38,804 nt of DNA. It comes from Candidatus Eiseniibacteriota bacterium (GTDB lineage Bacteria; JAFGKV01). Below, piece after piece: positions 5,233 to 27,400 of the stretch. The stretch lies in contig JALOPK010000001.1 in NCBI GenBank assembly GCA_025453925.1, positions 1 to 38,804 of the forward strand, in the 5' to 3' direction. The notes under the pieces are model-generated. The model saw only the letters and a list, made by a program, of their open reading frames with translations. It had not been told where the DNA came from and did not search any database. How positions within the stretch are numbered: position 1 is the stretch's first letter; each line of letters opens with the position of its first letter. Made by a program: the position numbers and the translations under genes.

Positions 5233-5423
5233 GCGCCCCGCAACGCGGCCTCGCGCGCGGGTCTCATGGGTTGATCTGCCCCGGCGTCGCGCCACCACCG
5301 GCGCCCGGGCTCCGTGGAGTGCGGCAACACGTGCGTGAAAGGAACCACACAGGGCATGCATGATGGGGCCGGCTGGCATGGGAGACGCAGAAGAGGCGGC
5401 GCAGGATCGAAAGGCCGGGAGGG

Positions 5424-8400
5424 CTACTCACCGGCAAGCTCCTGCTGCACGAGGCTGAGATACGCCCGCGATTGACGCGAACGCAGCCCCAGGCGGGCCT
5501 TCTGGTCGGCGATCGCGGCGGACGGGTCTCTCCCCTGGTCACGATATGCGCGGGCGGCCCCGACGGCGACGGCGTCAAGTGACACCCCTCTCGCACCCCG
5601 TGGCTGTCTGGCAAGGATGAGTGTTCGGGCGGCGGTGGCGTACGCATCGAGTGCACAGTCAAGGGCTCCGTGGGCACCGCAGGTATCTCCGAGTTCCAGG
5701 AGCTGACCCGCGTAGGCGAGGGACGGCATGTTGAGGAAGTGGGCATTCGCTAGGGCCGCTGCGGCCTGATCAAAGCGACCCGATTCGCGGCAGGCCAGCG
5801 CAAGATCCCTCCAGTACACCGGCCACAGCGGCTCGAAGAACGCATTCGGCCGCCATGCCGCGGCGGCGCGCGCGAGGTGGGGGATCGCCTCCGCATACCG
5901 CCGTTCACTGCACATCAACATGCCGAGCTGGTGATGGAGCCACGGATCATCCCACAGGAGGAGCGCGTGCCCCAGCTCAGTCTCTGCAGCCTCGACGGCG
6001 CCCAGCATGAGCAGTGCGGTGGCGCGACGGCCCATCAGCTTGCCGTGGGCCACCGAGTTCCTCTCCGTGAGGCGTTCGAGGCGTTCGAGGGCGTCCAGCG
6101 CACGCTGTGGTTCATCCCACCGCCGGTACGCGGCAACCAGATTTGAGAGCACGTACCGCATCAACGCGGAGTCTCCCGTGCGCTCGGCGCGGGAGAGCAG
6201 GCGATCCGCCACCATTGTGAGGGATATGCCTCCCTCCGCCACGGAGACTGCCGTGCTCGGTTGTCCGGTGCGGCCGAGGTGAGAGTCGATGAGCTGAAGA
6301 AGCTCGGTGTCGACGAGGCCAGTCCGGGCGAAACGAGGCAGCGCCCCGGACAGCATGATATCACCCTGGGCGATTCGCCATTCAGGGCCGCGTAATGCGG
6401 CAGGGTCCAGAAACAGCGCGTCGGCGAAAGCTCCGAGCGCCCCCTCTTCGTCGCCTGCGGCGGCGAGCGCAGCACCAAGGTCCGCCTGAGGGACCTCTCC
6501 GTCCATCCCGAATGGGTCGAGTTCGACCGACCGCCGGAAGGCTCCGATGGCATCGTCGAGGCGCCCCTCCCGCCACAGCAGCCACCCGATCCTTGAATGA
6601 TAGGGTGCGTAGAGGTTGCGGCGACTCACAGCCGCCGCGTAGTGTGCGAGCGCCTTCTCGCCCGCGCTGATATCACCCAGCGCCGCCTGTATCTCCGCAT
6701 CCAACGGGTTGAGACGGCCCGCATGGCGCAGTCGATCCTCCCGCCCCGCGTCTCCCGCGCCGGGCGCCGCTTGTTTACCTGGCGCCCCCATGCTTTGGGA
6801 CGCCAAAGGTCGCACGACGAAGAGGAGGGCAGCGATGAACACACACGCCGCGGCCCAAATGGCGCCCGATCCCGAGTGATGCGGCTGACGACTCGCCGTT
6901 TCGGGGGCATCAGCCGCAGCGATCCGTTGCACCCCGTTGATGACTCCCAGAAGTACGAAGAAGCAGAGGGGAAGGACCGTACCCGTGCTCAGCGTCAGCA
7001 CCAGAACGTGCGGGACGAGAAGGGCCACAACTCCGGCACTGGCCGCCTCCGTCCGGGAACGGATTTCCTGGGCAACCGAAGGCCTCCGCAGACGCCGTAT
7101 CCCCGCGCACGCCGCCAGAATCACGGCAGCCAATGCAGCAACACCGAGCACGCCCGTGGACTCTGCGATCTCCAGCCCGAGATTGTGCGGATGCCATCCG
7201 ACGCGCCACTCGTTCAGGAGCGACTCGCGGATCGGCGCGAGGCCGCCGGCCTCGACGATTCCCGCCACAGGCACCCGGACCATGGCCGGGATGAGATGAT
7301 TCCCGAAGCCTACCCCGAGCAGCGGGCGATGCCCGATGACGTCAACCGTCAACCGCCACGTGGCCGCCCTGCGGGTGAGTTCCCCGCTTTCGGCGCGCAG
7401 CGACCACGCCAGCATCAGCATCGCCGCAGGCGCGAGGACCATAACCCACCACCACCCGACCTTCCGGCGTGGCCTCGTCAAGCGAAGAAGCAGTAGGGTC
7501 AAGAGGCCCGCGAGCAGCCCCGCGGCGGCAGAACGGGAGTAGGTGAGAACCGTGGGCGGGAGCAGCAGCGCGGCCGCGCCGATGGCCAGCCATCTCCGGG
7601 GGCCGGACCACGTCCCCGCCAGACTCGCGGCCAGGGTGATCATGGCCGCCCCGTAGGTGGCGAGACCGTTGGCGTGGAGTACGCGCAGCCCGAGCCGTGC
7701 CCGCAGCGCGGTCTCCCACCCCATCTTCGAGGCATAGGCGACCACCCCGGCCGCCGCCGCCGCCGCCACCACCGCCGCCACCGCAAGCAGGGTCGTGAGC
7801 AGCCGGTCCACACGGTCAAGACTGCGCACACTCCCCGCGACGAGAAAGAAGACGACCATCCAGGTCAGAAGCCTGACCCACACAGACAGGCTCTGGTGCG
7901 GATAGGGGGAGACCACAGTGGCGGCGAGGCCAACTGCCGCGAAGGCGAGGACGGCGAGATCCAGCATCGTGGGGCGGTCGAGTTCCAAGACTGCCAGGGA
8001 GGCGGTGATGAGCACGATCGCCGCCATCAGGGATCCACGGCTGCCCTCCAGGAGGAATAGATGCCCGTTCACCGCGCCGAAGGTCACGATTGCGGTGACT
8101 CCCATCCACACGGCGCCTCGGATGGGATCATCGCCCGCCGTTCCCCACACCGACGACACCAGGAATGCACCGTACACCAGTATCAGGAATGGGCTCAGGT
8201 TGACCGAGAAGACCGACCCGAGACTCGTCACCCGGGGAAGGTCGTGCACCGAATCAACGGTGATCAGGAACGCGCATGCCTCAACGGCGATGACTGCCAG
8301 CAGCGCCGGTACGTTCCGCGGGAGGCGAGGCCGCCGAGCCCGCCGCCATCGTTCCCACGCCATGACCGCGGCGAGCGTGGCCATGGTCAGCAGCCCCAAT

Positions 8401-8564
8401 CCCGTGACGGCCCGGCCTCCTGTGGCGCGCCAGAGCGGGAGAGTCGCGGCCAGAAGAACGACGATGGTCACCAGAGAGAAGGAGACGGCCGCCCACGGGG
8501 CCCGCCTTGAGGCACCCGCGCGCGAGCACGCAGTGCCCGCTCGACGCTCAGGCGAGGGCTGCAT
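5424..8564 (-). CDS. O-antigen ligase/polymerase family (Wzy_C-like) polytopic membrane protein fused to a ~430-aa C-terminal TPR-like domain
   Basis: The long ORF reaches 8732, but its first 56 codons overlap the upstream GT4, so I take ATG 8564 (17-nt overlap). It has many hydrophobic helices. Wzy_C-type blocks are TYSRSAAAGLLAGL, GVGFGN and HPHNLGLEIAESTGVLG. The C-terminal helical repeats look TPR-like (YHSRIGWLLWREGRLDDAIGAFRRSVELDP). Confidence 0.8.
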   Translation of the reverse strand: MQPSPERRAGTACSRAGASRRAPWAAVSFSLVTIVVLLAATLPLWRATGGRAVTGLGLLTMATLAAVMAWERWRRARRPRLPRNVPALLAVIAVEACAFLITVDSVHDLPRVTSLGSVFSVNLSPFLILVYGAFLVSSVWGTAGDDPIRGAVWMGVTAIVTFGAVNGHLFLLEGSRGSLMAAIVLITASLAVLELDRPTMLDLAVLAFAAVGLAATVVSPYPHQSLSVWVRLLTWMVVFFLVAGSVRSLDRVDRLLTTLLAVAAVVAAAAAAGVVAYASKMGWETALRARLGLRVLHANGLATYGAAMITLAASLAGTWSGPRRWLAIGAAALLLPPTVLTYSRSAAAGLLAGLLTLLLLRLTRPRRKVGWWWVMVLAPAAMLMLAWSLRAESGELTRRAATWRLTVDVIGHRPLLGVGFGNHLIPAMVRVPVAGIVEAGGLAPIRESLLNEWRVGWHPHNLGLEIAESTGVLGVAALAAVILAACAGIRRLRRPSVAQEIRSRTEAASAGVVALLVPHVLVLTLSTGTVLPLCFFVLLGVINGVQRIAAADAPETASRQPHHSGSGAIWAAACVFIAALLFVVRPLASQSMGAPGKQAAPGAGDAGREDRLRHAGRLNPLDAEIQAALGDISAGEKALAHYAAAVSRRNLYAPYHSRIGWLLWREGRLDDAIGAFRRSVELDPFGMDGEVPQADLGAALAAAGDEEGALGAFADALFLDPAALRGPEWRIAQGDIMLSGALPRFARTGLVDTELLQLIDSHLGRTGQPSTAVSVAEGGISLTMVADRLLSRAERTGDSALMRYVLSNLVAAYRRWDEPQRALDALERLERLTERNSVAHGKLMGRRATALLMLGAVEAAETELGHALLLWDDPWLHHQLGMLMCSERRYAEAIPHLARAAAAWRPNAFFEPLWPVYWRDLALACRESGRFDQAAAALANAHFLNMPSLAYAGQLLELGDTCGAHGALDCALDAYATAARTLILARQPRGARGVSLDAVAVGAARAYRDQGRDPSAAIADQKARLGLRSRQSRAYLSLVQQELAGE

Positions 8565-9759
8565 ACGCGTCGAGTAGGCGCGAGATGTGCGTCTCGGTGG
8601 AGAAGGTTTCAATGACACGCTTGCGGCCGGCCCGGCCCATGTCTTCCGCCTCTTGCGGGGCCGACCAGAGTCTGCGGATGGCCGTGGCCAAAGCGGCCGG
8701 GTCTCCTGGCGGCACCAGCACTCCGTCCACACCGTCCTTCACCACGTCGGGGATGCCGCCGATTCCGCTCGCCACCACGGGCTTCCCCGCGACCCATGAC
8801 TCAAGGATGGAAATCCCAAAGACTTCATACCAGATCGACGGCAGCACTGTGAGACGGCATCCCGCAATGGTCCGCCCCAGCCGGTCGCCCGCCAGATGGC
8901 CGAGAAATCGGACATTATTGAGGCCGAGTTCCGTGGACAGGCGCTCAAGATCCTCGCGCACCGGACCCTCGCCTGCCACAAAGAGCGGCACTTCGGGCAG
9001 TAGCCGCATGGCGCGCAGCAGGATGGGCAGGCCTTTCTCCCGTGAGAGCCTCCCCGCGAAGAGGACATACGGGCCTGCCTCCGGTTCGAGGAGGCGCGGC
9101 GTCACCGGCGCGAAATAGGGGATAACGGTCACCTGCCCGGGGCTCAGACCAAAGTCGATGACCTTCTGACGAACGAAGGCGGTGGGCGCGATAAGCCGTC
9201 GAGCGAAACCCTGGAATGCACCAATTGTCCTGTGTGCCGTCATTTCCGCGGCCGCCAGCAGGCTCCATGACCAGGTGCCGAGACACCGATGCGCCACCGC
9301 CTGCCAGAACCGGCCGCCGCGGCACCGCTCACATGGCCTGCCGTCCGTGAACAGGAGGTAGTTCGGGCAGATGAGCTTGTAGTCATTCAAAGTCTGCACG
9401 ACGGGGATTCCCCGACGAGTCATGGGGGGCAGAATCGAGGGTGAGAGATGGTGATAGATGTTGAAGACGTGCACGATGTCAGGCGCGAACGCGTCAAGCA
9501 CCCGTTCCATTCGCCGTGCCCCCTCGCGATACCATATCACGCGCCCTGCCACGCCCCACCTCTGTCGGCTGGAGAGCTGCCGGAAGTCGATCTCCGGCGG
9601 AAACAGGTCGGCAAAGCGCGCGGGCTCGTTGCGCGGGTGCGCCATGGTAAAGGTCTCGACGGCGTGCCCACGGTCCTCCAAGGCCCGCTTCACGCTGAAC
9701 AAATAGCGTTCCGTGCCGGAACGCACGAATCCGTGCTTGTTGACCAGCAGCACTCTCAT
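8548..9759 (-). CDS. GT4-family (GT-B) glycosyltransferase
   Basis: Start MRVLLVNKHGF at 9759 forms an ATGA overlap with the stop of the upstream gene (9756-9759). The sequence LFAGRLSREKG...EVFGISILESWVAGKPVV is the E-x7-E region typical of group-1 glycosyltransferases. The upstream part of the 585-aa ORF lies inside the neighbouring gene and is Arg/Pro-rich. Confidence 0.85.
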   Translation of the reverse strand: MRVLLVNKHGFVRSGTERYLFSVKRALEDRGHAVETFTMAHPRNEPARFADLFPPEIDFRQLSSRQRWGVAGRVIWYREGARRMERVLDAFAPDIVHVFNIYHHLSPSILPPMTRRGIPVVQTLNDYKLICPNYLLFTDGRPCERCRGGRFWQAVAHRCLGTWSWSLLAAAEMTAHRTIGAFQGFARRLIAPTAFVRQKVIDFGLSPGQVTVIPYFAPVTPRLLEPEAGPYVLFAGRLSREKGLPILLRAMRLLPEVPLFVAGEGPVREDLERLSTELGLNNVRFLGHLAGDRLGRTIAGCRLTVLPSIWYEVFGISILESWVAGKPVVASGIGGIPDVVKDGVDGVLVPPGDPAALATAIRRLWSAPQEAEDMGRAGRKRVIETFSTETHISRLLDAYAALA

Positions 9760-10700
9760 GTTCGGTTCCTGACGCGAAGCATGGCGCCATGAACGATCCC
9801 GGCCATGGTCCCGATGTGAATCGTCGCCAGAATAGCCGGGACACGGTAGAAGGTTCGCCATGAGGGCGCGGCAAAGCAGCCGGCCCGGGCCTTCCGGATC
9901 AGATAGGCGGCGCCCAGCGCCACCATCGCGATCCAAGGCACCCAATGGCCCGTGACACACCCCGCACCGACGAGGGCGAGCCCCGCGGCGCTCTGGAGAA
10001 CCGTTCGGGAATGAAAGGTCCCGCTCGCACCCAGTTGACCCAGGCCGCGGGCATACTGATAGAACTGCCTCAATACCGCTCGGTATGTGGCCCGAGGTCG
10101 CCAGAGGACCGTGGCCGAAGGCCTGTGGGCGACGCCGCCGCAACGGGATGCGCGTTCGATGAACACGCCGTCTTCGGCGCGATTGAATGGGGGATGCTCG
10201 GGGAACCCACCAGCGGCCTCCCACGCCCAGCGGGGGAACGCAAGAGACCGGGCAGTCGGATTGACCGTCATGCCCGCGATCCGGATGTCGGGCGTGAGGG
10301 AACATCGGGCAACGCAGGCCTCGAAGTGCGTCGAAGGATTCGGAGTCACCCCTCCGATGACGAGGCCCAGAGCAGGATCATTCTCCAGGGGCGCCGCGAT
10401 TGCGGCGACCCATTCGCAGGACGGGATGCATCCGGCGTCGGTGACTGCGATGATTTCCGCTACGCTCGCGGCGATGCCGAGATTACGCCCGTGGGCAATA
10501 TCGGCACCCGGGGCTTCGATCACGTGAAGCCCGGGCACCTTGCCGCTTCGCTGCTTCGCGAGGGCCGGCGTGCCGTCCGTGGAACCCCCATCGACGATGA
10601 TCACTTGATCCGCGGGCCTGGTCTGGATCGAAAGGGCATCCAGCAGCGGCACGATGGATGACGCCTCGTTCCGCACGGTGACGACGACCGCCACGCGCAT
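9756..10700 (-). CDS. GT2-family glycosyltransferase with C-terminal transmembrane helices (GtrB/ArnC/DPMS-like architecture)
   Basis: 314 aa. The N-terminus MRVAVVVTVRNEASSIVPLLDALSIQTRPADQVIIVDGGSTDGT is a classic GT2 start. The C-terminal ~90 aa are hydrophobic (LALVGAGCVTGHWVPWIAMVALGAAYLI, VPAILATIHIGTMAGIV). Confidence 0.85.
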   Translation of the reverse strand: MRVAVVVTVRNEASSIVPLLDALSIQTRPADQVIIVDGGSTDGTPALAKQRSGKVPGLHVIEAPGADIAHGRNLGIAASVAEIIAVTDAGCIPSCEWVAAIAAPLENDPALGLVIGGVTPNPSTHFEACVARCSLTPDIRIAGMTVNPTARSLAFPRWAWEAAGGFPEHPPFNRAEDGVFIERASRCGGVAHRPSATVLWRPRATYRAVLRQFYQYARGLGQLGASGTFHSRTVLQSAAGLALVGAGCVTGHWVPWIAMVALGAAYLIRKARAGCFAAPSWRTFYRVPAILATIHIGTMAGIVHGAMLRVRNRT

Positions 10701-10701
10701 G

Positions 10702-11748
10702 TCATGCCCCCCAGAGCAAAAGGTAGTGCTGAGCCAGGGCCTCCCAGGTATGGGCCGCGGCGAAGCAATGGGCCTGTTCGAGCATCTGCGCAGACGGGCC
10801 TTGGGCGATCACACGGAGCGCCTGATCGGCGAATGTGGCGGGATCAGGCGCGGTAAGGAACAGCTCCGACGCCTGTGGCATGAGCTTGAGATAGTCCTCC
10901 TTGACCGGGTTGTGGTACACCGTAAAGAGAGGACGTCGCCGTACCATGGTCTCCAGCATGGAGAGATAGCCCGACGTGAGCACCAGGGTCGACGACTCGA
11001 TGATCGGTCCGGGGTCGGGGATGAACCCATGGAACGTGGCACGGATGCCCTCATCCCGCGCGAGTTGCTCCAGTGTCGCGCGCCAAGGACCGTCACCGCA
11101 GACGGTAAGAGGGATGTCGATCCCGTGATGGTTTCTCAAGAGTCCAAGGCCGCGAAGATAGATGTCCAACCCCGTGTCGGGCGCCAGCCTTCCGACAAAC
11201 GCCGCGCTATGGGCCTCGGGCGCGGCGGGCACCAGTTCCGGCGCGGTGCAGGCACCGTAGGTGACCACGGTCGGATGGATGCCCAACCATCGCACCAGGA
11301 AATGGCCGATGCACAGCGACCCCCGCGTCAGCCGCTCTGCCATGTCGTGGTAGAGCCTGGCGCGCCTCTGTACAGGGATGCGCATCTCATACCCGTGGTA
11401 GGTCATGAAGCGGGGACGATGAGACGACAGCGCCAGAGACGGGCCCGTCCAATGGAGAAGGCTGTAGACGCCATGGAAATGGATGATGTCCGCGTCCAGA
11501 AGAAGATGCCGATGGTCCATCCACCATCGCCATGCGGCGGGATAGCGAGCCCGGCCCGCGCGGGTGGGCATCCGGAACACCCGCGCGTCGGCCAGCGAGT
11601 CTTCGTCGGGCAGGCGTGGATCGTGCTTCGGGGCCACGAGGGTCAGTGTGATGCCGTGGGAGGCGAGCGAGGGAACAAGCCCCGTCATGTGCCGCTCGAC
11701 ACCGCCGATCGCCGGCGGCAACCGCTCAGCCACCATCAGGACGCGCAT
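10702..11748 (-). CDS. GT4-like (GT-B) glycosyltransferase
   Basis: Start MRVLMVAERLPPAIGGVERH at ATG 11748 overlaps the upstream gene by 23 nt. The longer 409-aa version would overlap by about 200 nt. The stop lies 1 nt before the next gene's ATG. The GT-B-like layout is AFVGRLAPDTG...CGDGP. Confidence 0.75.
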   Translation of the reverse strand: MRVLMVAERLPPAIGGVERHMTGLVPSLASHGITLTLVAPKHDPRLPDEDSLADARVFRMPTRAGRARYPAAWRWWMDHRHLLLDADIIHFHGVYSLLHWTGPSLALSSHRPRFMTYHGYEMRIPVQRRARLYHDMAERLTRGSLCIGHFLVRWLGIHPTVVTYGACTAPELVPAAPEAHSAAFVGRLAPDTGLDIYLRGLGLLRNHHGIDIPLTVCGDGPWRATLEQLARDEGIRATFHGFIPDPGPIIESSTLVLTSGYLSMLETMVRRRPLFTVYHNPVKEDYLKLMPQASELFLTAPDPATFADQALRVIAQGPSAQMLEQAHCFAAAHTWEALAQHYLLLWGA

Positions 11749-14700
11749 GATCTCCCGTTCTCCCCTCGGTGGCCTTGTCATTGACCAAGGCCCAGTACGC
11801 CTCTCGCACACACCCCCGGCGCGGGACCAGATGGCCGTGCTCATCCGGGACTCGATCCCCCGGGATACCCATCCTGCGATAGTTTCGCCTGGTCTCGGAG
11901 GCCATGAGGCCAAGAAGCCGGCGGGTCTCACCGCTGAGCGACCCGTCTTCCTGCAGGCTGGTTACTCCCATCGCGACGAGGCGCAATGCCGACGAGTAAT
12001 CGGCCTGACCATAGGCAGTGCGGGCGAGGCCGAGCAGCCGTTCGGCATAGGTCTGGGTCGGCATGAGGAGGAAGTGCGCCATGGCATACGACCGGGCGGC
12101 ATCAGGGATTCTGCCCGCCTGTTGTTGTGCCTGGGCGAGATCGTGCCAGACTTGCCACCAAGAACCGTCTGCCGGCACGCCCGGGTCCCAGGACAGCGCG
12201 GCCAACTCCAACTCGCGAATGGCCTCCTCCCGGCGACCCTGCAGGGTGAGGGAGGCAGCGAGGAGGGCGCGGGCCTTGGCTCCATCGGAGCCCGCCAGGC
12301 ATGCTCGAAGTATGTTCTCTGATTCTTCTGGCCGTTTCTGCCCGAGTGCGGCAATGCCCGCCAGTTTCTGCAGGTGAGCCCGCTCCCGGCTTCCGCCCGG
12401 AAGGCGATCCACGAGTGAAGAGAGAACGCGAAAGGCCTCTTCTGGGAGTCCCCACCGCTCATACACGGCGGCGACTCTCTCACCGTGGCGCATCGTCGTG
12501 ACGGCATCGTGCGCGTGAGCGCCGGCCATGTACCGAGAGGCGAGGAGCGAGAACCCGATGCTGCCGCCCGAGGTGCGCGGCTTTTCGGCCGCGGCCCCCT
12601 GTCCGGTATGTTGTTCGATGATGCTGACCATCCGCGCATCCAGGACGCCGTTCGCGGCGAAACGCTCGAAGGCGGCGGAGAGCCGTATCTGGTCGTTTTC
12701 GAGGACCCAGTCGATCGGATTGATTGGATCGGCTGAAAGCCCCATGGCTCGCAAGAAGCACGTTACGGCCTCGTCGCCGCGGCCCGTGGCGACATACGCA
12801 AGGGCGAGGTCGGACATATGCTCTCGGAAGTTGGGACCGACCCAGGTCGCCAGGGTCAGATCCTGTGCCCGCTGCGAGATGAAGGCCTCGGACAGGCTCC
12901 GGCCAAGGGTTTCGTCCTGGATGCGGACAGCCTCCTCGAAATGGCCCAGCGCCTCCTCGAGTCGTTGCTGGCCCCAGAGGCGCCATCCCAGACGCACGTG
13001 GTAAGCGGGATGCCGCGGCCTCAGGCGGCACGCATCCCGGTACCACCGGAGGGCGTCTGCATCCCCCGCCAGATCGCCCGACAGCGCCCGCAGCTCGGCA
13101 TTCAGGGGCATCAGGCGGCACGCCATTTCGATGCGCGCCGGCGACGCCGGTGGTGGTGGCATGCACTTGTCCGCCCCGATAGATGTCCTCACGAGAGTCC
13201 CCGCGAGCATCGGCCGGACCACGCACACCAGCATGACCGTGATCACTGTCAGACTCAGCACGAGTGGTCGCCCCCTGACGCTGCGCAACCTCTCTTCCCT
13301 CGCCTCGAGTGCAGGCAATGACCCTCCCGCCGGGGGGTTCAGCCTTACCGTTGCCGCCGCAAGGCCCAGCAGGAGCCAGAACTCCAAAGGAAGCAAAGAC
13401 GGCGCGCTCAGGCTCAACACGAGCTGGTGCGGAATCAACAGGGAAACCATGGCCGCTCCTATCGCGGCGAGGACTCCACGGACGGGCCCCGCTGATCGTG
13501 ACCATCCCCGCACCACCAGGACGGCAGCCGCGGCGACCATGCCCAGGAAGACGACGAGCCCCGCGGCGCCCGCGCTTTCGAACACCTGCAGGAATAGGTT
13601 GTGGGAATGCCATTGGCTGGCCGGGCTCGCTAGAGGATCCGGATAAGCCCCCGCCGCCCACGCCGCCTGGTTGGCATTGAGGCCCCGGGGCAGGGGGTCG
13701 TAGAACGCCATCACGGCCGGATCGCCAAGCCCGCGTCCAAGAAACGGCCTCCGGGAGACGGAATCGGCCACCATGCGCCACACATTCCGCCGCCAGGATG
13801 CCTCCTGCTGACCCCAGAGCGTCACCAAGGCCCCGGCGACGACAATGAGAGCCCCCGCAGTCACCAGCGCGGGCAGGACGCGGCGCCACGCACTCTGGCG
13901 CGACAGCGGTCCCCTTCGAGCCGCCCACCCCAGCACCGCCAGCCCCGCCAGAAGCCCGGCCGCAGCGGAACGCGAGTACGTGAGCATGAGAATGGGGGCC
14001 GAGAACACCGCCGCGCCATGGGCCAACCCGACTGCCCACCCGGCCTTCCTCACTAAAGCGAAGAGCGCCCCCAAGACTACGATCACCCCCGCGGCGGCCG
14101 CCACGGGGACGATGCCTCTCATCGCGGGAGCGGAAGGGAGCTGCACACCGGCTCGGGCGGCGAGCGACACCCCCACCGATGCCACTGCCGCCGCCGCAGC
14201 CACCCCGATGGTGATCCGGCCCCCGGGAGACCGTGCCCGGAGCGCGCCGAGGGCCAGTGTTATTATGGTTGCCGCGTAGATACCCACGGCATTGGGGTGC
14301 ATGGAGGCCATGCTGAGGCGGGCACGAAGTGCGGCGCCCGCTGATGCATGCTGCGCATAGTTCCACACCCCGTGCAGCCCCGCCACAGCGAGGACGACTG
14401 CCACGGTCAGCATGACTCGCACCGTTCGCGGCGGGGTGCCGGCGTCACGGCTTCGCGACAAAAGCACGAAGGCGAGCGCTCCGGTCCCGAGGCGCATCAG
14501 CATCTCCGCGCTGTAGTGGACATACTGCGCCGTCACCGTGGCCAGGAGGGCGCAGCCCAGGAAGAGCCCCGTCATGACCTCCACGGCCGCGATTTCCCGT
14601 ACCCGGACGCCGCTGTCCCTCCTGATGGGGAGGTGCGCGACGCCGACCAGCAAGATCCCGCTGAGCAGAAAAAAACGCTCATCACCGAGCGCGAAGAACC

Positions 14701-18221: not shown

Positions 18222-18228
18222 GATGAGA

Positions 18229-19665: not shown

Positions 19666-19822
19666 ATCTCCCCCCGGCGGACTTCGATGGCGGTTCGTTC
19701 GCGGGGAAGTCGCGTCTCTCTCCCACTGCCTGCGGGGGAGATCACCGCCATCGCAACGGATCCTGCGCACCCCCGGGGTGCCGAACCGCCGGGGCAAGAG
19801 GGCACAGAACTGCTCGTTCGCA

Positions 19823-20776
19823 TCAGGGCTTGCCTATGGGCACGCCGTCCGGGCTCATCGCCTCCAGGAGGCAGGCGAGATCCACACATCGGGTTCGCTG
19901 GATACCGCGGCGGGCACGGAGCGTGGCACCCATCCGAAGGAACGCCTCGCAATAGCCGCGAAACGCCGCCCCCCGATGGGGAGCATGCCGGAGTGCCGCC
20001 GCCCATGTGTGCCCGATACCCCCGAGGCGAGGCTTGATGAGTCCCCACGGCATGTTCTTCAGGTACACCGTGACCCGGTTCCGGTACACCAGTCTCATCT
20101 GAGCGCTCGATCCCCGGCCGAACGTGGCACTCCGGTCGTGATGAACCACGGCATCAGGGACATAGACGCAGCGGTGTCCCAGGAGTCGGGCGCGGAATCC
20201 GAAGTCGATGTCATCGCTGTAGATGAAAAGGCTCTCATCGAGCGAGCCCACACGCTCGAAGACTCCCCTTCGGTAGATCGATGCCGCACCGGTCGCGGTG
20301 AAGACCTCACACGGGGTATCAAACGCGGGTCCATCCGGTTCTCCGTGACCCCGCATGATGCCTCCGATCAGAGGATCGAAGGCGTCGCCCGCGGAGTCGA
20401 TCCGGCGTGGATCGGAGGCAAGGAGGAGCCGGCACGCCGCGAATGAGAACACCGGCGCCTCCTCCAGCGCAGACTGCAGCGCCTCCAACCATGTCGGGGT
20501 GGGATAGGCATCACTGTCCAGAGTGACGATGAAATCTCCCGAGGCCGCCTTGACCCCCGCGTTCACGCCGCCTGACGTGCCGAGGTTACGCGGGAGTCGA
20601 ACCACTTTCACCCAAGGATACTCCCCGCGCATGGTCTTCACCGTGTCGTCGCTGGACGCATTGTCCACCACGATTATCTCTTCCGGCCGCCGCGTCTGAC
20701 TGGCAAGGCGTTGGAGGCACCGCCTGAGCCGTGGCAGTGCGTTCCAGGTCGGGATGACTACCGAGACGGACGCCAT
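19823..20776 (-). CDS. GT2-family glycosyltransferase
   Basis: 317 aa with ATG at 20776. Supporting blocks are MASVSVVIPTWNALPRLRRCLQRLASQTRRPEEIIVVDNASSDDT, TLDSDAY and YSDDIDFGFRARLLG. Confidence 0.85.
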   Translation of the reverse strand: MASVSVVIPTWNALPRLRRCLQRLASQTRRPEEIIVVDNASSDDTVKTMRGEYPWVKVVRLPRNLGTSGGVNAGVKAASGDFIVTLDSDAYPTPTWLEALQSALEEAPVFSFAACRLLLASDPRRIDSAGDAFDPLIGGIMRGHGEPDGPAFDTPCEVFTATGAASIYRRGVFERVGSLDESLFIYSDDIDFGFRARLLGHRCVYVPDAVVHHDRSATFGRGSSAQMRLVYRNRVTVYLKNMPWGLIKPRLGGIGHTWAAALRHAPHRGAAFRGYCEAFLRMGATLRARRGIQRTRCVDLACLLEAMSPDGVPIGKP

Positions 20777-20866
20777 GGTTGGGTCTGGTGCGGCAGGCGG
20801 CCGCTCCCGCCGGGATAGCCGGCCCGCGTCGGAGGCCTGGTGGAGGGGGCATTCACCGAGGTTCCC

Positions 20867-22303
20867 CTATTCAGCGAACATGGATCGGCCATCCATGTAA
20901 CGGGGAACGGCCTCATCGAGCGCGTGGAGCACGGTCGGCGCCACATCCATGATTGAGACGCATGCTTCACGCAAGGCGCCACATCCCGGCCCCCGGGCGT
21001 AGAGCACGCCCACGGGGCGATGACTTCCCCGATTCTCCACGGAGTTCGCCGTCGCCTCCAGGGAGGACCGAATCGTGAACTGGCCCATGAGGCGAATCCC
21101 CTCATCATGGGGCATAAGGAGCATGTCGGGCGCCCCGGCTGCATGGAGCCCGGCGTAGATGTCATCCCGTGGGACCACCGCCCTTAGCAACGGACTGCCC
21201 TCGTCGTCACGGCAGGCGAGGAGATCGTCGGCCAGCCTGACGCTCAGGTCTCTCTGCTCCGTCCCGGTCGTGATCACGCCATCCGGTTCGCGCCCCTTAA
21301 TGTTGAGCCAGAGCCCGGGACATTCTACGTAGAGCCCGCCGAACGCGCGGGTCCTCCGCCAATCCACCCTGAGCCGCGGAGGGCCGAGCTCTACCCGGGG
21401 CCGCCACCCCCTTGCAGGACGTCGCAGGCGTCTCACGCGAAGCTTGTGGCCGCGATGGAGACGGAGAAACCCGTGCTCGCGGAGCCAGACGTTGACATGA
21501 AACAGATGGCGGCATGGACCGAAACCGTGGTCAGACATCACGATGACCGTCGTCTCGGACCCGGTGGCCTCGAGCAACCGACCCAGCGTCGCGTCCAACG
21601 TCTCGTATGCTGCTTCAACGGCCGCGCCGGGCTCCCCACCGGGCGCACCTTCCGTCTCCCTGGCCTCTGTCTCACCCCAGAGCATGTGTTGGACCTTGTC
21701 GGCCAAGGTGAACACCACCATGAAGAGGTCCCATTGCTCCTGCCCCAAGAGCCAGAGTGCCGCGTCGCGTCTCGCCGCATGTCTCCGCGCGAGTTGCGCG
21801 CTCAGGTGGCCGGCGTCGAGCGTGTCGAGGTCGCCAAAGCCGTCCGCCTGGTAGTCGGGAATTCGCGTGCGCAAGTGATCGGCCACCGCAGCGGGAAATG
21901 TGAAGTCGGATCGCATTCCCGGAGTGGGCAAACCGGTCACCATTACCCCGTTCACCGGTCGGGGGGGAAACGTCAGCGGCACGTTCAGGGAGCAGACCCG
22001 GCGCCCGCGTCGGCTGAGTATCTGCTCCAGGGTTGCCGCGCCGATGTCCGCGCTGCTCACCAGTGGCCATTCATAGCCCGAACGGCGCCAGAACCCGAAC
22101 GCGCCGTGTTTCCCCGGGTTCACGCCCGTTCTGCAACTCGTCCACGCAGGGGCGGAGTTGGCCGGGAATGTTGACTGAAGACGCCCCGCGCAGCCCTCCG
22201 CCATGAGCCGCGCGAGGACCGGAAGCCGACGGGCATTCACCATTCGGTCGGCGACAGCCGGCTCGAGACCGTCGAGGCCGACCAACAGGACCCGGGCTCC
22301 CAT
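20867..22303 (-). CDS. Alkaline-phosphatase superfamily protein, NPP/type I phosphodiesterase-like, with no signal peptide
   Basis: 478 aa. Supporting blocks are MGARVLLVGLDGLEP (metal Asp), FPANSAPAWTSCRTGVNPGKHG (nucleophile loop), VIVMSDHGFG (DH codons 21527-21532) and GSHRPVGVL. Confidence 0.8.
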   Translation of the reverse strand: MGARVLLVGLDGLEPAVADRMVNARRLPVLARLMAEGCAGRLQSTFPANSAPAWTSCRTGVNPGKHGAFGFWRRSGYEWPLVSSADIGAATLEQILSRRGRRVCSLNVPLTFPPRPVNGVMVTGLPTPGMRSDFTFPAAVADHLRTRIPDYQADGFGDLDTLDAGHLSAQLARRHAARRDAALWLLGQEQWDLFMVVFTLADKVQHMLWGETEARETEGAPGGEPGAAVEAAYETLDATLGRLLEATGSETTVIVMSDHGFGPCRHLFHVNVWLREHGFLRLHRGHKLRVRRLRRPARGWRPRVELGPPRLRVDWRRTRAFGGLYVECPGLWLNIKGREPDGVITTGTEQRDLSVRLADDLLACRDDEGSPLLRAVVPRDDIYAGLHAAGAPDMLLMPHDEGIRLMGQFTIRSSLEATANSVENRGSHRPVGVLYARGPGCGALREACVSIMDVAPTVLHALDEAVPRYMDGRSMFAE

Positions 22304-22306
22304 TGC

Positions 22307-23806
22307 CTACCCCAGATACCCCAGAGCCCGCAGATGTGCCTCCACACCTTGCCGCTCGACGGCGGACAGTTCCTGCGCTGCAGAGCGGGGCAGACCATCG
22401 GGCGAGGCAACTACACGAACAGGATGATCCCGCAACCAAGAGTCATCAAACAGCTCCGTCGCCACCGTTCCTTCCATGTGGCCGGGCACCGGCACACCGA
22501 GGATATGGAGAACAGTCGGTGCGATATCCGTGAGCCGCATGGGCACCGCATCCCCATCCCCGGCGCAATCCCCGGCCAGAGCCAGCACTCCTCCGCCGAT
22601 CATATGGAACTCACCTTCCGGAGCCGGACCCATCACCGAGCTGGCATCCAGGGAAGGGCATGTCGCGATTCCCTCGTCGGCCGGCTCAACTACCAAGTCA
22701 GGCAAAGGGATCAGGCCGGGCCCGGCAGACAGGTTCTCGCGGATCAAGACATTGCCCACGGCCGGCAGATCGGCGATGCTGTCCCGGATGAATCTCGCGC
22801 GGGCGGCGCGATCAGTGAGAGGCGCCCGGGAAGCATCGCTTCCCACAGGTGCCCCGGATCTCCCCCCGCATGAGAGAAAGACCCCGGCGTCGTCGGCAAG
22901 GGCCGCCGTCCGTTTCCCGTCTACGCCGCGGCGTTGCCCGAGTTCTCCGGGGAGTGCGCACTGCTCCATCAAGAAACGGCACGCCGACGAGTCCCGCCTC
23001 GACAACCGCCGCAGCGCGCGCCGCGCCGTGCCGGATGGAGAAAGCCGGAGCAAACCCTGTTGTTCCAGCCAGGCATTGAGGTGAAGATGGCTTCGCACCG
23101 TCGCGGCGTGTGTTGGCGACACCAGCAGCAGTGCCCGCGCGGGTATCTCCGAGATCAACAGGCGAAGGAGGGCGTCGAGCCCGTCCGGCATCCCGGGCGT
23201 TGCACCGGTTCGCGCGCGGGAGCCACGCGCCCGCCTCGCCCCGGCAAGATGCCGAAAGCCAATGGCGATGAGGTCACTGTCCTGCTGGTCCCGCATCCAG
23301 CGCACCATGCGGATGACCCCCTCTGCGCGGCGAACGCCTTCAGTGGTCTCAACGGAGGCCAGGGTTGCCCGGTCCGAGGGCGGCATCGCCTCCCACAGCC
23401 CCCGCGGGAAGCTGTCCCATGGGTCGGGAGGCATGGTCAATGCCACGCCGTTGATGGCCGCCGGCGGCCAGGTGAGTGGAACGCCCACCGCCGCCACCCG
23501 CAGGCCTGCTTCCCCGGCGACGGCAAGGAGGCTGGGGAACGCCAGCCGCCAGATCGAAGGGCCCGCGCGCTCCGGGCCCCCGTCCACACTCCGCCCTCCC
23601 CACACCCCGTGGGCGGATGGCTCGACACCCGTGTGCACCGTGGCCCAGGCCGCCGCCTGGCTGCGGGCGAGACCGGCCGAAAAGATGCCCTGAGAGCCTC
23701 CATCGAGGAATGGGCGGAGGGCGGGCTGGCCCGCGCGGCGTTCCGCGTTGCCGACGGACGAGGGAGTCAGCCCTTCCGTTGCGAGTACGATGACCGGAGA
23801 ACCCAC
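22307..23806 (-). CDS. Paralogue of the NPP-like protein with substituted metal-ligand motifs (possible pseudoenzyme)
   Basis: GTG 23806 aligns residue-for-residue with Met1 of the downstream paralogue (VGSPVIVLATEGL versus MGARVLLVGLDGL). The upstream part of the 575-aa ORF is Arg-rich junk. D becomes E in ATEGL, and SDHG becomes SPTH (nt 23108-23119). The stop lies 3 nt before the next ATG. Confidence 0.7.
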   Translation of the reverse strand: MGSPVIVLATEGLTPSSVGNAERRAGQPALRPFLDGGSQGIFSAGLARSQAAAWATVHTGVEPSAHGVWGGRSVDGGPERAGPSIWRLAFPSLLAVAGEAGLRVAAVGVPLTWPPAAINGVALTMPPDPWDSFPRGLWEAMPPSDRATLASVETTEGVRRAEGVIRMVRWMRDQQDSDLIAIGFRHLAGARRARGSRARTGATPGMPDGLDALLRLLISEIPARALLLVSPTHAATVRSHLHLNAWLEQQGLLRLSPSGTARRALRRLSRRDSSACRFLMEQCALPGELGQRRGVDGKRTAALADDAGVFLSCGGRSGAPVGSDASRAPLTDRAARARFIRDSIADLPAVGNVLIRENLSAGPGLIPLPDLVVEPADEGIATCPSLDASSVMGPAPEGEFHMIGGGVLALAGDCAGDGDAVPMRLTDIAPTVLHILGVPVPGHMEGTVATELFDDSWLRDHPVRVVASPDGLPRSAAQELSAVERQGVEAHLRALGYLG

Positions 23807-24218
23807 TATGGAGTCCCGCGCGCAACAGAGAGAGGCGAGGCCACTGGTTCGCCGGGCATTCCCACTTCCGCGGGACGGTTCTCGCAGGATTTCAGGATCA
23901 TCCGTCGTTGAGAGTGCCGGTGATCGGCGTTCCCGCCGACCGGTCGTGAGAGGAATGGATCGGCGCGGCGTGGCGGCACACCCGTCTCTGTGAAGAGGAA
24001 CGGCTGCCCGCCCTTCAAATGCGGCGCACAGCATTCCGTTTCGTCACGGACTCGGTGCACATGCGTGGGGCGAGCCGTTCTGGTCGCCGGAATCGCGCGC
24101 CCGCCCCGCTGAGAGAACGAAGTTGAACGGGCCGCCCGCATACCACGGGAGCCCCTCGGTGGGGAAACCGCCCGGCCGACGCCCTGCCGCGAGATCACTG
24201 GCCGCCGCGATCCAGGTA

Positions 24219-25430
24219 TCAGCCCGATGCGGCGCCCAGGGCGAACTGTACACCCAGCGCCTCGCTACGCGACGTCGGTATGCGAAACCCAGTTGCACCA
24301 AGGCGCAGGCGCAGGGGGCCGGGTCTCAACTCCAGCCCGGCGGCCATACCGAAGCCTTCCGGCCGACCCGCTCCCAACTCCAGCCATGTTCGCAGCCATG
24401 CCCGGGCATCCCAGATCAGACCAGCATGCACGCGGGGCGATGTGGTGACACCGGCCCAGGAGCGCAGTCCCTGGTTCCATCGCGCGTAGGCGCCGCCCCA
24501 CGGGAGCCGGCGGCCGATGTGCACTTCCATCCGGGCAGGTAAGGGCGTCGACCACCGACCGACGTCGTACGTGCTGTCGGAGCTGACATACCCGCTATCT
24601 CCCAATTCCGCGGTCCATTCCTCCGCCTGGAACTCGACCAGCTTCTCCTCGACCCCCTTCCAGGAGAGTGAGGGTCCCAGATCCTTGAGCACGATCTCCA
24701 GCTCCCACTGGTCCCTGGCCGCGCGGCCGCCGAGGTCGAGCGCGACGCCGACGGGAAGGCGGGACTCCGGGTCGTCCGTCGTGCGCCGTACGACGGTGAC
24801 ACCTTCCGCGGTGAGGCCCTCTACTTCGGTAAGTACCGCGAACGAACTCCTCGTGATCTTGGCGGCGAGGACGCCCAACACGATTCGGGCGCCAATCCCC
24901 GACGAGGTTTCCCATCCGGCTATCCGGCCGCTTGGGAACCCGTATGATCCGCCGGCGGACAGGTAGGTCAACATGCCACCCGAGTTCAGCAGTTCATAGC
25001 GGCGATCCAGTGCATTGCCGAAGAACATCAGGTCGATGAGGTCCTTATCGAGGCTCAGGTCTCCCCCCAGATAGGCCCTCGTGATGAAGGCCGCCCGGCC
25101 GACGCGTATTCCCAACGCCTCAGCCTCGCCCTGCAGGAACCCCCTGGCGGTCTTCCCGGAGATGCTCTCCAGGATCGTCCTCTTGTCGTCTTCGTCGAGG
25201 TACTCCCCGCTGTACCTGCGATAGAGGTCCAAGCTCACGGCATTGTTGCGGACCGCCACGCTCCCATGCACCAGGTAGGCCTCCCAGGCCCCCATGGCGG
25301 GATCGGCCAGAGCGGCTGGGTTGGCGAGCCACGCGACTCCTGACCCTGACCATCCGCCGGGCGCTGCCCATGCCGCGCCGGCGGTCATCAGAGATATGAT
25401 CAGCCACACCGCGGGGTTACATGTCATCAT
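24219..25430 (-). CDS. Secreted protein, putative outer-membrane beta-barrel (weak FadL/PorV-like N-terminal motif)
   Basis: ATG 25430 or 25427 gives MMTCNPAVWLIISLMTAGAAWA, a signal peptide. This start overlaps the upstream gene by 11-14 nt. An ANPAALA motif sits near the mature N-terminus. The sequence has alternating amphipathic Gly/aromatic-rich stretches to the C-terminus. Function is not established. Confidence 0.55.
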   Translation of the reverse strand: MMTCNPAVWLIISLMTAGAAWAAPGGWSGSGVAWLANPAALADPAMGAWEAYLVHGSVAVRNNAVSLDLYRRYSGEYLDEDDKRTILESISGKTARGFLQGEAEALGIRVGRAAFITRAYLGGDLSLDKDLIDLMFFGNALDRRYELLNSGGMLTYLSAGGSYGFPSGRIAGWETSSGIGARIVLGVLAAKITRSSFAVLTEVEGLTAEGVTVVRRTTDDPESRLPVGVALDLGGRAARDQWELEIVLKDLGPSLSWKGVEEKLVEFQAEEWTAELGDSGYVSSDSTYDVGRWSTPLPARMEVHIGRRLPWGGAYARWNQGLRSWAGVTTSPRVHAGLIWDARAWLRTWLELGAGRPEGFGMAAGLELRPGPLRLRLGATGFRIPTSRSEALGVQFALGAASG

Positions 25431-26577
25431 CGAGCTCGATGCGCGACGTAATGCCCATGAGTATCCTGGCGGAAATGGAGTCGTCCGCACAGATGCAGAT
25501 CCGGCGCGTGCCCGATCCATCCAACAGATACTCCACGGCTGCGTACAGCGTATCGTTCCCCGGGCCGGGGTTCGCGAAGAGGCCCAACTGGTCCTCATCA
25601 AGACTCACGCTGGTCTGCGCATGCGCCACGCCCGTGGATTTGCCGGTGATGGGGTCCACCGATGGGGCCTCGAACGCGAAAGGCCCGATCAGCAGTTCCG
25701 GATCATCCCATAATCGCAGTGAATCGTTGTCAACCCGGACGCAGGCGTGTCCGCCGAGCGGCAGGTTGTTGTCGACATCGGCAATAATGAGAGCCGCACG
25801 GAGATTCTCGGTCAGGTCGCCTTCGACGTCCGCATCGTCGGAGTCGCCGTCAGCCGGATCAATCACCAGCTTCTGCACGATGGAGCGTCGATCCACATCC
25901 GCGCCGTCAAAGGTCAAGTCGAATGCGGTGAGCAGCGATACCTGCACCGACAGGGTCGCCTGGGGACCGACCGGCCGGCCCTGCGCCGTATACGCCAGCG
26001 TACTGGTCGCCGCATAGCTGTCGGGGACGGCATGAGTCGGGGAGGGATTGATGAAGATCAAGATCTGGGGGTCGGTCACGAGGTGGGTCGAGACGATCTC
26101 TTCACCACTGAGTGACGAGGGGGCGTTCACGGAAACACGCAACGGCCCGGATGGCCGCCCATCGTCATCCCAGCCTTCTATCGCCGTCTCGATTTCCACA
26201 GTGCCCGGCAGATTGTGCCTGACGACAATCTCGAGCCAGGCGCGGTAGAACGAGGGATTCTCCAGCTCATCCAGGGGATTGCCGCTCCATGTGGCGGTGC
26301 CACCAGGGATTACCGCCTCCCCCTGGGTAGGCAAGCCCTGAAGGGTGGCCGGGTCGGCGACGATCACGTCGGACACGACGCTGGCGACCACGCTATCCGA
26401 ATCCATCAGGCGAAACGGGCCATACTCGCCGAAGAAGAAGTCGCCCTCGGCGCCAACCAGCTCGCGCACGAATGCGGTGCGTGAAACCAACGGCACGTTG
26501 GCAGTCACGTCCCACGTCGGGGCCTTCGGGCTTGGGATGGAGCAACCGGCGACCAGCAGAATGAGAAGTCGGCGCAT
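25417..26577 (-). CDS. Acidic lipoprotein of unknown function (first gene of the long minus-strand operon)
   Basis: 386 aa. The N-terminus MRRLLILLVAGCS is a lipobox. A strong AGGAGG site (26583-26588, minus strand) lies 5 nt upstream of ATG 26577. I recognise no family. Confidence 0.65.
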   Translation of the reverse strand: MRRLLILLVAGCSIPSPKAPTWDVTANVPLVSRTAFVRELVGAEGDFFFGEYGPFRLMDSDSVVASVVSDVIVADPATLQGLPTQGEAVIPGGTATWSGNPLDELENPSFYRAWLEIVVRHNLPGTVEIETAIEGWDDDGRPSGPLRVSVNAPSSLSGEEIVSTHLVTDPQILIFINPSPTHAVPDSYAATSTLAYTAQGRPVGPQATLSVQVSLLTAFDLTFDGADVDRRSIVQKLVIDPADGDSDDADVEGDLTENLRAALIIADVDNNLPLGGHACVRVDNDSLRLWDDPELLIGPFAFEAPSVDPITGKSTGVAHAQTSVSLDEDQLGLFANPGPGNDTLYAAVEYLLDGSGTRRICICADDSISARILMGITSRIELDDDM

Positions 26578-27149: not shown

Positions 27150-27400
27150 GCTGTCCGGCGACGACGAGCGCCGGGGCCGCGGCATCACGGGACATTGCAA
27201 CCGGGGCGGAACAGTCCTGGAGGCGTCTTCCCGTCATTGAGACGAGGGTGAGGCCCTCAACACCCCCGGCGACCGGCTGTGGGCGCCGCCACGCCCGGTT
27301 GCGGGGGGATTCGCATACTTGACCTCGTGTCCGCGACGCCTGTTCTTGCTGACTTCGCCAGATTATCGGCAGTTCGTCATTCGGAGAGGGCCGCTTTTCC

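Follow-up and report, generated by a model that had tools for sequence, protein, structure and literature searches.

A candidate O-antigen-like Wzx/Wzy_C glycan operon with a module-swapped GT4 and twin TPR-bearing Wzy_C proteins in a Candidatus Eiseniibacteriota contig

The rfb O-antigen pathway of Escherichia coli and Salmonella relies on a flippase of the MOP family, Wzy_C enzymes, a run of glycosyltransferases (GTs) of families GT2 and GT4, and nucleotide-sugar genes nearby. The E. coli clusters carry neither wecA, for the initiating phosphoglycosyltransferase (PGT), nor waaL, for the ligase, nor export machinery, and O-antigen requires no Wza-type outer-membrane polysaccharide export (OPX) protein and no Wzc. 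The shared parts of this pathway recur in a 38,804-nt stretch of DNA from a Candidatus Eiseniibacteriota bacterium (contig JALOPK010000001.1 of assembly GCA_025453925.1; the stretch is the entire contig, has a G+C content of ~65% and is referred to below as the window), in which 13 consecutive open reading frames (ORFs), g1 to g13, run along the minus strand from 26577 to 5424. With moderate confidence we read g3-g13 as an O-antigen-like, Wzx/Wzy_C-dependent operon that is served by a PGT encoded elsewhere and contains two WaaL-like enzymes. Compared with the rfb clusters, the window encodes both WaaL-like proteins within the operon, where the two carry one additional helix and a tetratricopeptide repeat (TPR) domain of ~450-490 aa apiece; it has no visible Wzz, and adds a pair of proteins of the nucleotide pyrophosphatase/phosphodiesterase (NPP) type and one GT4 bearing a PGT-derived module. 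These oddities are rearranged standard parts and no new kind of pathway, and the current model of glycan assembly is not overturned; what is truly unusual is that g8 is module-swapped, that twin Wzy_C proteins bear TPR domains and that an NPP pair is present.

The one-strand layout of 13 genes described in the original prediction was found at the same positions, and its junctions matched on recomputation. ATGA start/stop overlaps join g7/g8 (17040-17043), g8/g9 (15106-15109) and g11/g12 (9756-9759), longer overlaps occur at g1/g2 (14 nt), g9/g10 (23 nt) and g12/g13 (17 nt), and short gaps separate g3/g4 (3 nt), g6/g7 (7 nt) and g10/g11 (1 nt), leaving three wide spacers at g2|g3 (412 nt), g4|g5 (90 nt) and g5|g6 (157 nt). 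Start codons were set by upstream context and orthologue alignments, which place the start of wzx (g6) at a GTG at 19665, in line with a 473-aa orthologue, and that of g3 at a GTG at 23806, in line with its end-to-end alignment to g4. The predicted parts list was likewise borne out by Pfam and NCBIfam profile searches, with one MOP flippase (g6), two Wzy_C proteins (g9, g13), three GT2 proteins (g5, g7, g11) and three GT4 proteins (g8, g10, g12), besides two NPP-type proteins, g4 and, marginally, g3. Searches of the window for Rfam families, an ops/JUMPStart core, tRNAs and notable repeats found none, and a promoter/terminator scan gave background level only.

The absence of a PGT, Wzz/Wzc and an OPX protein from the 38.8 kb was also confirmed. 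The large ORFs of the window gave no Pfam match to Bac_transf, MraY/WecA, Wzz or Poly_export, no window ORF scanned matched PF02706, PF13807 or a tyrosine-kinase family, and a tblastn probe with the PglC catalytic domain (a sequence for probe use only) found nothing in the window and matched 68 other fetched loci. The largest unannotated gap in the window, 823 nt, is too short for a further PGT. The sole close relative in the collections searched is the 472-kb contig FWPV01000042.1 (assembly GCA_900174595.1), which was inspected over 43 kb around the orthologous genes in two stretches, L002 with the operon orthologues and L084 with the g1-g2 region; no PGT was present in these 43 kb, and neither the window nor the inspected portion of this contig showed a Wzc or Wza. 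Because these genes are also missing from O-antigen clusters of the E. coli type, however, the lack of PGT, Wzz/Wzc and Wza is no proof of a non-canonical locus: such absences are normal for loci of the O-antigen type and weak evidence for the "variant envelope-glycan pathway" that had been proposed from them. What stands of that proposal is a Wzx/Wzy_C lipid-linked locus with atypical, conserved parts.

Comparison with FWPV01000042.1 redefined the extent of the operon. Orthologues of g4-g13 are present there in the same order at 35-70% amino acid identity, with a 292-aa remnant of g3 ahead of them, and because the order is kept at such identities, the cluster order goes beyond chance. The g1-g2 pair, with identities of 56% (g1) and 52% (g2), lies ~19 kb from the g3-like gene, and on a third contig, L085, the pair occurs alone; the two genes g1-g2 are therefore a module that can stand apart from the rest, and the g2|g3 spacer of 412 nt is likely a unit boundary. 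In both the window and FWPV01000042.1 the pair has similar neighbours, namely genes for DegT, a 548-aa NDP-sugar dehydrogenase, an ankyrin protein, an ABC exporter, an S26-like peptidase and an epimerase. The conserved transcription unit is thus probably g3-g13 (22307-23806 down to 5424-8564), rather than all 13 genes. Alignment of the g2|g3 spacer to the upstream region of the relative revealed no conserved leader, and the searches for promoters, terminators, Rfam families and ops elements likewise brought up nothing to decide the boundary. Accordingly, one 13-gene operon is supported as a layout, whereas a single unit of that size is an interpretation; the expectation that gene order is conserved in relatives holds for g4-g13 and the short g3 remnant, with g1-g2 lying apart; and the statement that a lipoprotein and a barrel open the operon did not hold up.

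Large monotopic PGTs such as WbaP, WcaJ and CpsE carry a four-helix bundle and a PF13727 "DUF" (together the four-transmembrane-helix-DUF, or 4TMH-DUF, module) ahead of the Bac_transf catalytic domain with its re-entrant helix and Asp-Glu dyad. In WbaP, this module mediates dimerisation, binds UMP, UDP and UTP, and is a probable regulator of activity; it also precedes a non-PGT enzyme in PglF-like NDP-sugar dehydratases, and the bifunctional PGT fusions that have been described keep the catalytic domain (PMC10942596). In g8 (15106..17043, minus strand, 645 aa), the four-helix bundle and PF13727 region (~1-250) is fused to a DUF1972/GT4 domain (279-645). Residues 14-246 of g8 match positions 3-232 of the 445 positions of TIGR03025 (NCBIfam, E 7e-14), the same stretch matches the WcaJ model TIGR03023 (E 8.5e-12), and a profile built on the N-termini of 15 members of the family matches residues 6-213 of the WbaP structures that have been solved (E 1.3e-7). 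This stretch holds four hydrophobic segments, and its PF13727 score in g8 itself is 18.7-20.6 bits, below the cut-off of 25, with a homologue in locus L004 reaching 49.5 bits. Judging from these matches, the N-terminus of g8 is a homologue of the non-catalytic 4TMH-DUF half of a WbaP/WcaJ large PGT. A role as PGT was rejected for g8, which has no Bac_transf catalytic domain: PF02397 gave no match, the GT4 domain begins at residue 279 and the PglC probe was negative. Consequently, the expectation that no listed gene would prove to be a standard PGT or OPX by profile search was upheld, with the qualification that the half of a PGT that lies N-terminal and is non-catalytic is present in g8. The similarity of this module to that of the PGT in locus L011 is too weak (hhalign E 2e-4) to name its parent PGT.

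The GT4 domain of g8 has as its top named NCBIfam match (E 3.6e-26) Cps2T, the rhamnosyltransferase acting after the PGT CpsE in pneumococcal capsule synthesis. Seen against these first two steps, catalysed by CpsE-Cps2T (WchA-WchF), g8 resembles the CpsE N-terminus and Cps2T in one protein, and the enzyme joined to the module is a GT4 glycosyltransferase, unlike the dehydratase of the PglF-like proteins. At least 28 full-length homologues were aligned (34-55% identity, ~640-670 aa), all with the same architecture and mostly metagenomic; the few named ones belong to Anaerolineae/Chloroflexota. When metagenomes were scanned with g8, the only homologues to turn up were unfused GT4 proteins from short contigs, and in the literature searched we found no description of a fusion between the PF13727 module and a GT4. 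This would make g8 a third type of host for the 4TMH-DUF module, earlier described on PGTs and PglF dehydratases only. Its occurrence on a putative second-step glycosyltransferase, in a sizeable uncharacterised family, supports the view of the module as a portable membrane-anchoring and regulatory device, and g8 may serve as a natural construct for probing the function of the module without a PGT domain.

The surroundings of g8 homologues bear on the acceptor of the pathway. When flanks of +/-10 kb were fetched, a Bac_transf PGT was found in 0/10 loci with the fused g8 architecture (~7 of them independent) and in 68/78 loci with an unfused GT4. Unfused homologues beside a Bac_transf PGT share 45-53% identity with the g8 GT4 domain, and because they adjoin such a PGT, a polyprenyl-diphosphate-sugar acceptor is most likely, and hence a PGT acting in trans. 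Locus L011, from an Acidobacteriaceae metagenome-assembled genome (MAG), is a canonical counterpart of the window system: within 5245-11857 it encodes a 516-aa large PGT (PF13727 + PF02397), a plain 426-aa Wzy_C protein and GT4 domains homologous to those of g12 and g8 (38-53%), a gene set that argues for a polyprenyl-diphosphate-linked acceptor. Related Acidobacteriota loci keep the g12/g8 pair of GT4 domains next to a Bac_transf PGT. In L011, the one examined with Pfam, the PGT is present and itself bears the 4TMH-DUF module, the Wzy_C protein is free of TPR repeats, and GT4 domains of the g12 and g8 kinds are fused, whereas in the window the module is on g8, there is no PGT and the Wzy_C proteins have TPR domains. 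About 68 loci resembling L011 were seen among L007-L083. The idea that the PGTs beside unfused GT4 proteins are small and PglC-like was rejected for the one that was checked, the 516-aa large PGT of L011.

The GT4 protein g12 (8548..9759, minus strand; PF00534, 134 bits) is the partner of the g8 GT4 domain. A g12 homologue lies directly upstream of a g8 homologue in L003, L004, L086, L088 and L089, and in L011 the two kinds of domain are joined in one 824-aa protein; this gene fusion and adjacency mark g12 and g8 as functional partners. In L088 and L089, moreover, orthologues of g7, g10, g11, g12 and g8 are clustered at 40-56% identity, with g10-g11-g12-g8 contiguous. These five GTs make up an assembly module that is old and mobile, and the lineage of the window pairs it with Wzx and two Wzy_C-TPR proteins. 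Its occurrence both in a diderm lineage and on distant contigs from MAGs and metagenomes points to a conserved glycan core in uncultured bacteria.

Both Wzy_C proteins are WaaL-like. The 1127-aa g9 (11726..15109, minus strand) has an extra transmembrane helix and a C-terminal TPR region of ~490 aa, and the 1046-aa g13 (5424..8564, minus strand), the last gene product of the operon, repeats the Wzy_C + TPR architecture; they score 52.8 and 42.4 bits, respectively, on PF04932 (cut-off 31.7) and also match TPR families. Over their whole length they are ~28% identical, and a word-indexed homologue search with g9 returned only g9 itself and g13. Orthologues in FWPV01000042.1 share 40% identity with g9 and 35% with g13, and a 1151-aa Wzy_C-TPR protein of L004 is 29% identical to g13. 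Because each protein has its own orthologue in the relative, the duplication is older than the split of the two genomes, with both copies kept. The motif H-N-x9-G-x2-G is present at residue 503 of g9 and residue 460 of g13, corresponding to the H[NSQ]x9Gxx[GTY] motif of a periplasmic His loop that is typical of O-antigen ligases, and R380, R440, H501 and H503 (g9 numbering) are invariant across both paralogue groups. Past the His loop, g9 and g13 have four hydrophobic segments, compared with three in WaaL; if the loop is periplasmic as in WaaL (PMC2932511), hydropathy counting places the TPR domains probably in the periplasm. The Wzy_C family spans WaaL and the PglL/PilO O-oligosaccharyltransferases (O-OTases), and polymerase, ligase and O-OTase cannot be separated by sequence (PMC3643930).

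A periplasmic TPR domain attached to a membrane glycan enzyme or export component has been described before. The pilin glycosyl/oligosaccharyltransferase TfpW of Pseudomonas aeruginosa carries one (bioRxiv 10.1101/2020.04.19.049825), and periplasmic TPR scaffolds act in synthase-dependent exopolysaccharide export, as in BcsC, PgaA, PelB and AlgK (PMC12220298). TfpW, however, is ArnT-like, whereas g9 and g13 belong to Wzy_C, and in BcsC, PgaA and PelB the TPR region is coupled to a barrel of the outer membrane instead of an enzyme of the inner membrane. The best matches of the g9 TPR region in the Protein Data Bank (PDB) are the TPR domains of O-GlcNAc transferase (OGT). The g9/g13 pair may offer a tractable case for studying how ligase-family enzymes choose their acceptors. 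As a separate observation, g9 and its orthologue share a hydrophobic insertion of ~60 aa (residues ~295-360, window ~14030-14230) that is missing from g13, its orthologue and the L004 protein and may add transmembrane helices to one of the paralogues.

The g1-g2 module was predicted as a lipoprotein followed by a putative barrel. This assignment is supported by the lipobox of g1 and by the signal peptide and structural model of g2, although the barrel is FadL/PorV-like and no polysaccharide channel. The 386-aa g1 (25417..26577, minus strand; lipobox LVAGC, read from the sequence) had no Pfam or NCBIfam match at E<=10 and no PDB sequence match; its orthologues (56-66% identity) lie immediately upstream of g2 orthologues in FWPV01000042.1 and L085, so that g1 probably forms a conserved pair with g2 outside the core operon. 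An OPX role was rejected for g1, in which no Poly_export or SLBB domain matched. The product of g2 (24219..25430, minus strand), which begins within the end of g1, is a secreted FadL/TodX/PorV-like barrel and a divergent member of DUF5723. Word-indexed search found 3 homologues and exhaustive HMMER profile search 420; among 85 aligned members of the family, PF18990 (DUF5723) was matched in 76/85, TraF_2 in 34/85 and Toluene_X (FadL/TodX) in 8/85. The window protein is itself too divergent to score on PF18990, on which its orthologue P0124 scores E 0.009.

An AlphaFold2 model of g2 from the 85-sequence alignment is all-beta (pLDDT 91.4, pTM 0.85), a 4-sequence alignment having yielded an unusable model (pLDDT 38.6). 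Foldseek matched it best to TbuX, FadL, TodX, CymD, PorV and the barrel subunit of Bacteroidota BAM complexes, with TM-scores of 0.4-0.5. The fold is thus like that of the FadL/TodX/TbuX channels and of PorV, the shuttle of the type IX secretion system (Foldseek probability 1.0), although g2 shares only ~10% sequence identity with them and is paired with the lipoprotein g1. Since g2 is modelled as an outer-membrane barrel of the FadL/PorV kind, the source organism is diderm. An OPX protein and a glycan porin of the AlgE/PgaA/Wzi type were rejected as candidates for g2, given a TM-score of ~0.25 against the alginate porin AlgE.

At the head of the conserved operon, directly after the 412-nt spacer, lies the NPP pair g3-g4, predicted as two cytoplasmic NPP-type proteins. 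Profile scores are strong for g4 and marginal for g3, and the catalytic residues of g3 are lost. The protein g4 (20867..22303, minus strand; PF01663, 131 bits) is a cytoplasmic metalloenzyme of the type I phosphodiesterase/nucleotide pyrophosphatase kind without any hydrophobic segment; it aligns to phosphonoacetate hydrolase (PhnA) at the nucleophile position and the DHG motif and keeps all catalytic residues that can be aligned. Its paralogue g3 (22307..23806, minus strand), 25% identical over the full length (E 1e-21), retains the NPP/alkaline-phosphatase fold and scores 22.4 bits on PF01663, under the cut-off of 23. In g3 the nucleophile Ser is replaced by Gln, the Asp of DHG by Thr, and the D-x3-H segment is deleted; lacking the nucleophile and two Asp ligands, g3 falls outside the NPP enzymes and is probably a pseudo-enzyme, either decaying or regulatory. 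An orthologue of g4 occurs in FWPV01000042.1 (46% identity) and a Phosphodiest gene also in the distant locus L088, and this recurrence with the GT set suggests that g4 is linked to the pathway.

Taken together as an O-antigen-like operon, these parts would operate as follows. A PGT encoded elsewhere in the genome would add the first sugar-phosphate, and six GTs at the cytoplasmic face (g5, g7, g8, g10, g11, g12) would build an oligosaccharide on a carrier that is presumably polyprenyl diphosphate. The GT4 domain of g8 would act early on the PGT product, like Cps2T/WchF, while its 4TMH-DUF module would hold the enzyme at the membrane and may, by analogy with WbaP, dimerise or sense uridine nucleotides. 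Wzx (g6) would flip the finished unit, after which one of g9 and g13 would most likely polymerise and the other ligate to lipid A-core or another envelope acceptor, their TPR arms, if periplasmic, binding a partner or acceptor. Amino- and uronic-acid-type precursors would be provided by the DegT protein, the NDP-sugar dehydrogenase and the epimerase encoded nearby, g4 with its dead paralogue g3 may be an accessory cytoplasmic phosphodiesterase, and g1-g2 would be a neighbouring, separable outer-membrane module. Several points weigh against this scheme. A PGT in trans has to be assumed, since none is present in the window or in the flanks of the 10 fused-g8 loci, and the unfused-GT4 loci are mostly from Acidobacteriota, so that the 68/78 do not represent independent events. 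In addition, no Wzz, of which a copy may be encoded elsewhere in the genome, is seen in the window, the specificities are left uncertain by scores below the NCBIfam equivalog cut-offs for all 13 proteins, polymerase and ligase are indistinguishable by sequence in g9 and g13, and the TPR topology comes solely from hydropathy counting.

An alternative that we regard as unlikely is protein O-glycosylation or S-layer glycosylation, in which the oligosaccharide flipped by Wzx would be transferred en bloc to envelope proteins; g9, g13 or both would serve as PglL-like O-OTases whose periplasmic TPR domains recruit the acceptors. The Wzy_C family includes PglL/PilO O-OTases besides WaaL (PMC3643930), and TfpW is a protein-modifying membrane transferase with a periplasmic C-terminal TPR (bioRxiv 10.1101/2020.04.19.049825), but it belongs to another family, the ArnT-like one. 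The OGT matches of the g9 TPR region also point to protein acceptors, yet such matches are generic, and neither a candidate acceptor protein nor a sequon was found; the lack of a Wzz or other polysaccharide co-polymerase (PCP) in the window fits transfer of a short glycan, whereas the load of six GTs fits either reading, and the two paralogues are explained no better than by a split into polymerase and ligase. Initiation independent of a PGT, in which g8 itself would start the glycan on polyprenyl monophosphate, diacylglycerol or a phospholipid, would make the cluster self-sufficient and its product a glycolipid-anchored glycan. It would account for the contrast between 0/10 and 68/78 loci with a flanking Bac_transf PGT, although the flanks span +/-10 kb only. 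Lipid-glycosylating GT4 enzymes exist, and g8 and g12 have weak NCBIfam matches to GlcNAc-phosphatidylglycerol synthase and to IagA/BgsA glycolipid-anchor transferases, but these are far under the cut-offs, and the top named relative, Cps2T, uses an undecaprenyl-diphosphate (Und-PP)-sugar acceptor. Likewise, the GT set of L086, L088 and L089 occurs without Wzx, Wzy or PGT within 10 kb and alongside a PIG-L deacetylase and acyltransferases that resemble a glycolipid gene set, whereas PGT-adjacent homologues, as in L011 with its large PGT and plain Wzy_C, share 45-53% identity with the GT4 domain of g8, and Wzx and WaaL-like enzymes in the window fit Und-PP chemistry. On balance we consider this quite improbable.

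Export across the envelope without PCP and OPX, with the TPR arms of g9/g13 passing the glycan, or its lipid-linked form, to the g1 lipoprotein and g2 barrel in the manner of BcsC, PgaA, PelB and AlgK, is more doubtful still and has very little probability in our view. FadL-type barrels move amphipathic cargo laterally into the outer membrane, which would suit such a role; the predicted periplasmic position of the TPR domains, the lack of Wzc and Wza in the window and the inspected parts of the relative, and the location of g1-g2 within the wider glycan region that also holds the operon in each genome are consistent with it. Hand-off from TPR to barrel is established for synthase systems (PMC12220298), but g2 is FadL/PorV-like and unlike the glycan porins of the AlgE/PgaA/BcsC type, and in the relative g1-g2 lies ~19 kb away from the operon; no other GT-set locus has the pair. 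The Lpt pathway would, moreover, suffice if the glycan were ligated to lipid A-core. A wholly self-contained route without PGT, PCP and OPX, in which g8 initiates on a lipid and the twin TPR enzymes polymerise or hand over the glycan, possibly to g1-g2, seems to us highly improbable as well.

The remaining members of the operon are a flippase and four GTs, all on the minus strand. The Wzx-type MOP flippase g6 (18229..19665) scores 96 bits on PF01943 and 85 bits on PF13440, matches the NCBIfam MOP flippase family (E 1e-17), has many hydrophobic segments and is 60% identical to its orthologue in FWPV01000042.1. The GT2 protein g5 (19823..20776; PF00535, 108 bits) has an orthologue of 70% identity there. 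Orthologues in FWPV01000042.1, L088 and L089 were found for the GT2 protein g7 (17040..18221; PF00535, 71.5 bits; 41-48%), the GT4 protein g10 (10702..11748; PF13439 + PF00534; 50-58%) and the GT2 protein g11 (9756..10700; PF00535, 63.7 bits; 48-65%), whose C-terminus is weakly hydrophobic, with hydropathy peaks at 233-262 and 290-308. The C-terminal extension of g7, ~120 aa (window 17040-17400; sequence WSPVPGATSYRVEISPDPAF...), has no Pfam match. The GT set also appears in a different setting in L004 (277-12528; an Anaerolineae, Chloroflexota, MAG), L086 (395-11935), L088 (1-11929) and L089 (1-11935), each with 1-5 sulfotransferases per locus. It is complete, with all five GTs, in L088 and L089, where genes for a PIG-L deacetylase and for an acyl-activating enzyme or acetyltransferase also occur. 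None of these four loci showed a Wzx within 10 kb, and their product is probably a sulfated glycan or glycolipid.

Upstream of g1, several genes of the glycan region are shared with the relative. Divergent from g1 on the plus strand are the genes for a DegT/PseC-like sugar aminotransferase (27401-28573; 70% identity to the relative) and the 548-aa NDP-sugar dehydrogenase (28736-30382), both assigned by Pfam and NCBIfam. The dehydrogenase matches 413 positions of TIGR03026 with ~450 residues and is the most conserved protein between the window and the relative (86%). An NAD-dependent NDP-sugar epimerase, GalE/TviC-like, lies further on at 36493..37515 on the plus strand (PF01370, 196 bits, and NCBIfam; 75% identity). 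Within the same region, an ankyrin protein with ~7 repeats is encoded at 30677-31723 (plus strand; 45% identity to its counterpart at L084 4343-5386). It is followed on the minus strand (31795-35939) by genes for a 437-aa NTP_transf_5 protein, a 258-aa S26-like signal-peptidase homologue and a 618-aa ABC_membrane/ABC_tran exporter, a trio that looks like a peptide-maturation/export set. The exporter and the peptidase are 77% and 61% identical, respectively, to their counterparts in the relative, which has a NusG paralogue between the epimerase and peptidase genes, at the place of NTP_transf_5 in the window.

On the other side of the operon, two overlapping tandem Sulfatase-family paralogues of 772 and 885 aa (260-2578 and 2575-5232, plus strand; 41-44% identical) are convergent with g13. 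Each has a single N-terminal hydrophobic segment and a long N-terminal region without a Pfam match, their best NCBIfam matches are arylsulfatase/PehA-like, and they are absent beside the operon of the relative. On these grounds, LtaS/EptA-like decoration of the glycan was rejected for the pair. The 823-nt divergent intergenic region between g1 and the DegT gene (26578-27400), which has no Rfam match, contains as its sole ORF an Arg-rich one of 173 aa (26801-27322) without a family match and is probably regulatory and non-coding. At the contig end (~37900-38804, plus strand), a truncated ORF encodes a membrane-anchored protein with a faint resemblance to DUF1574 (E 0.16).

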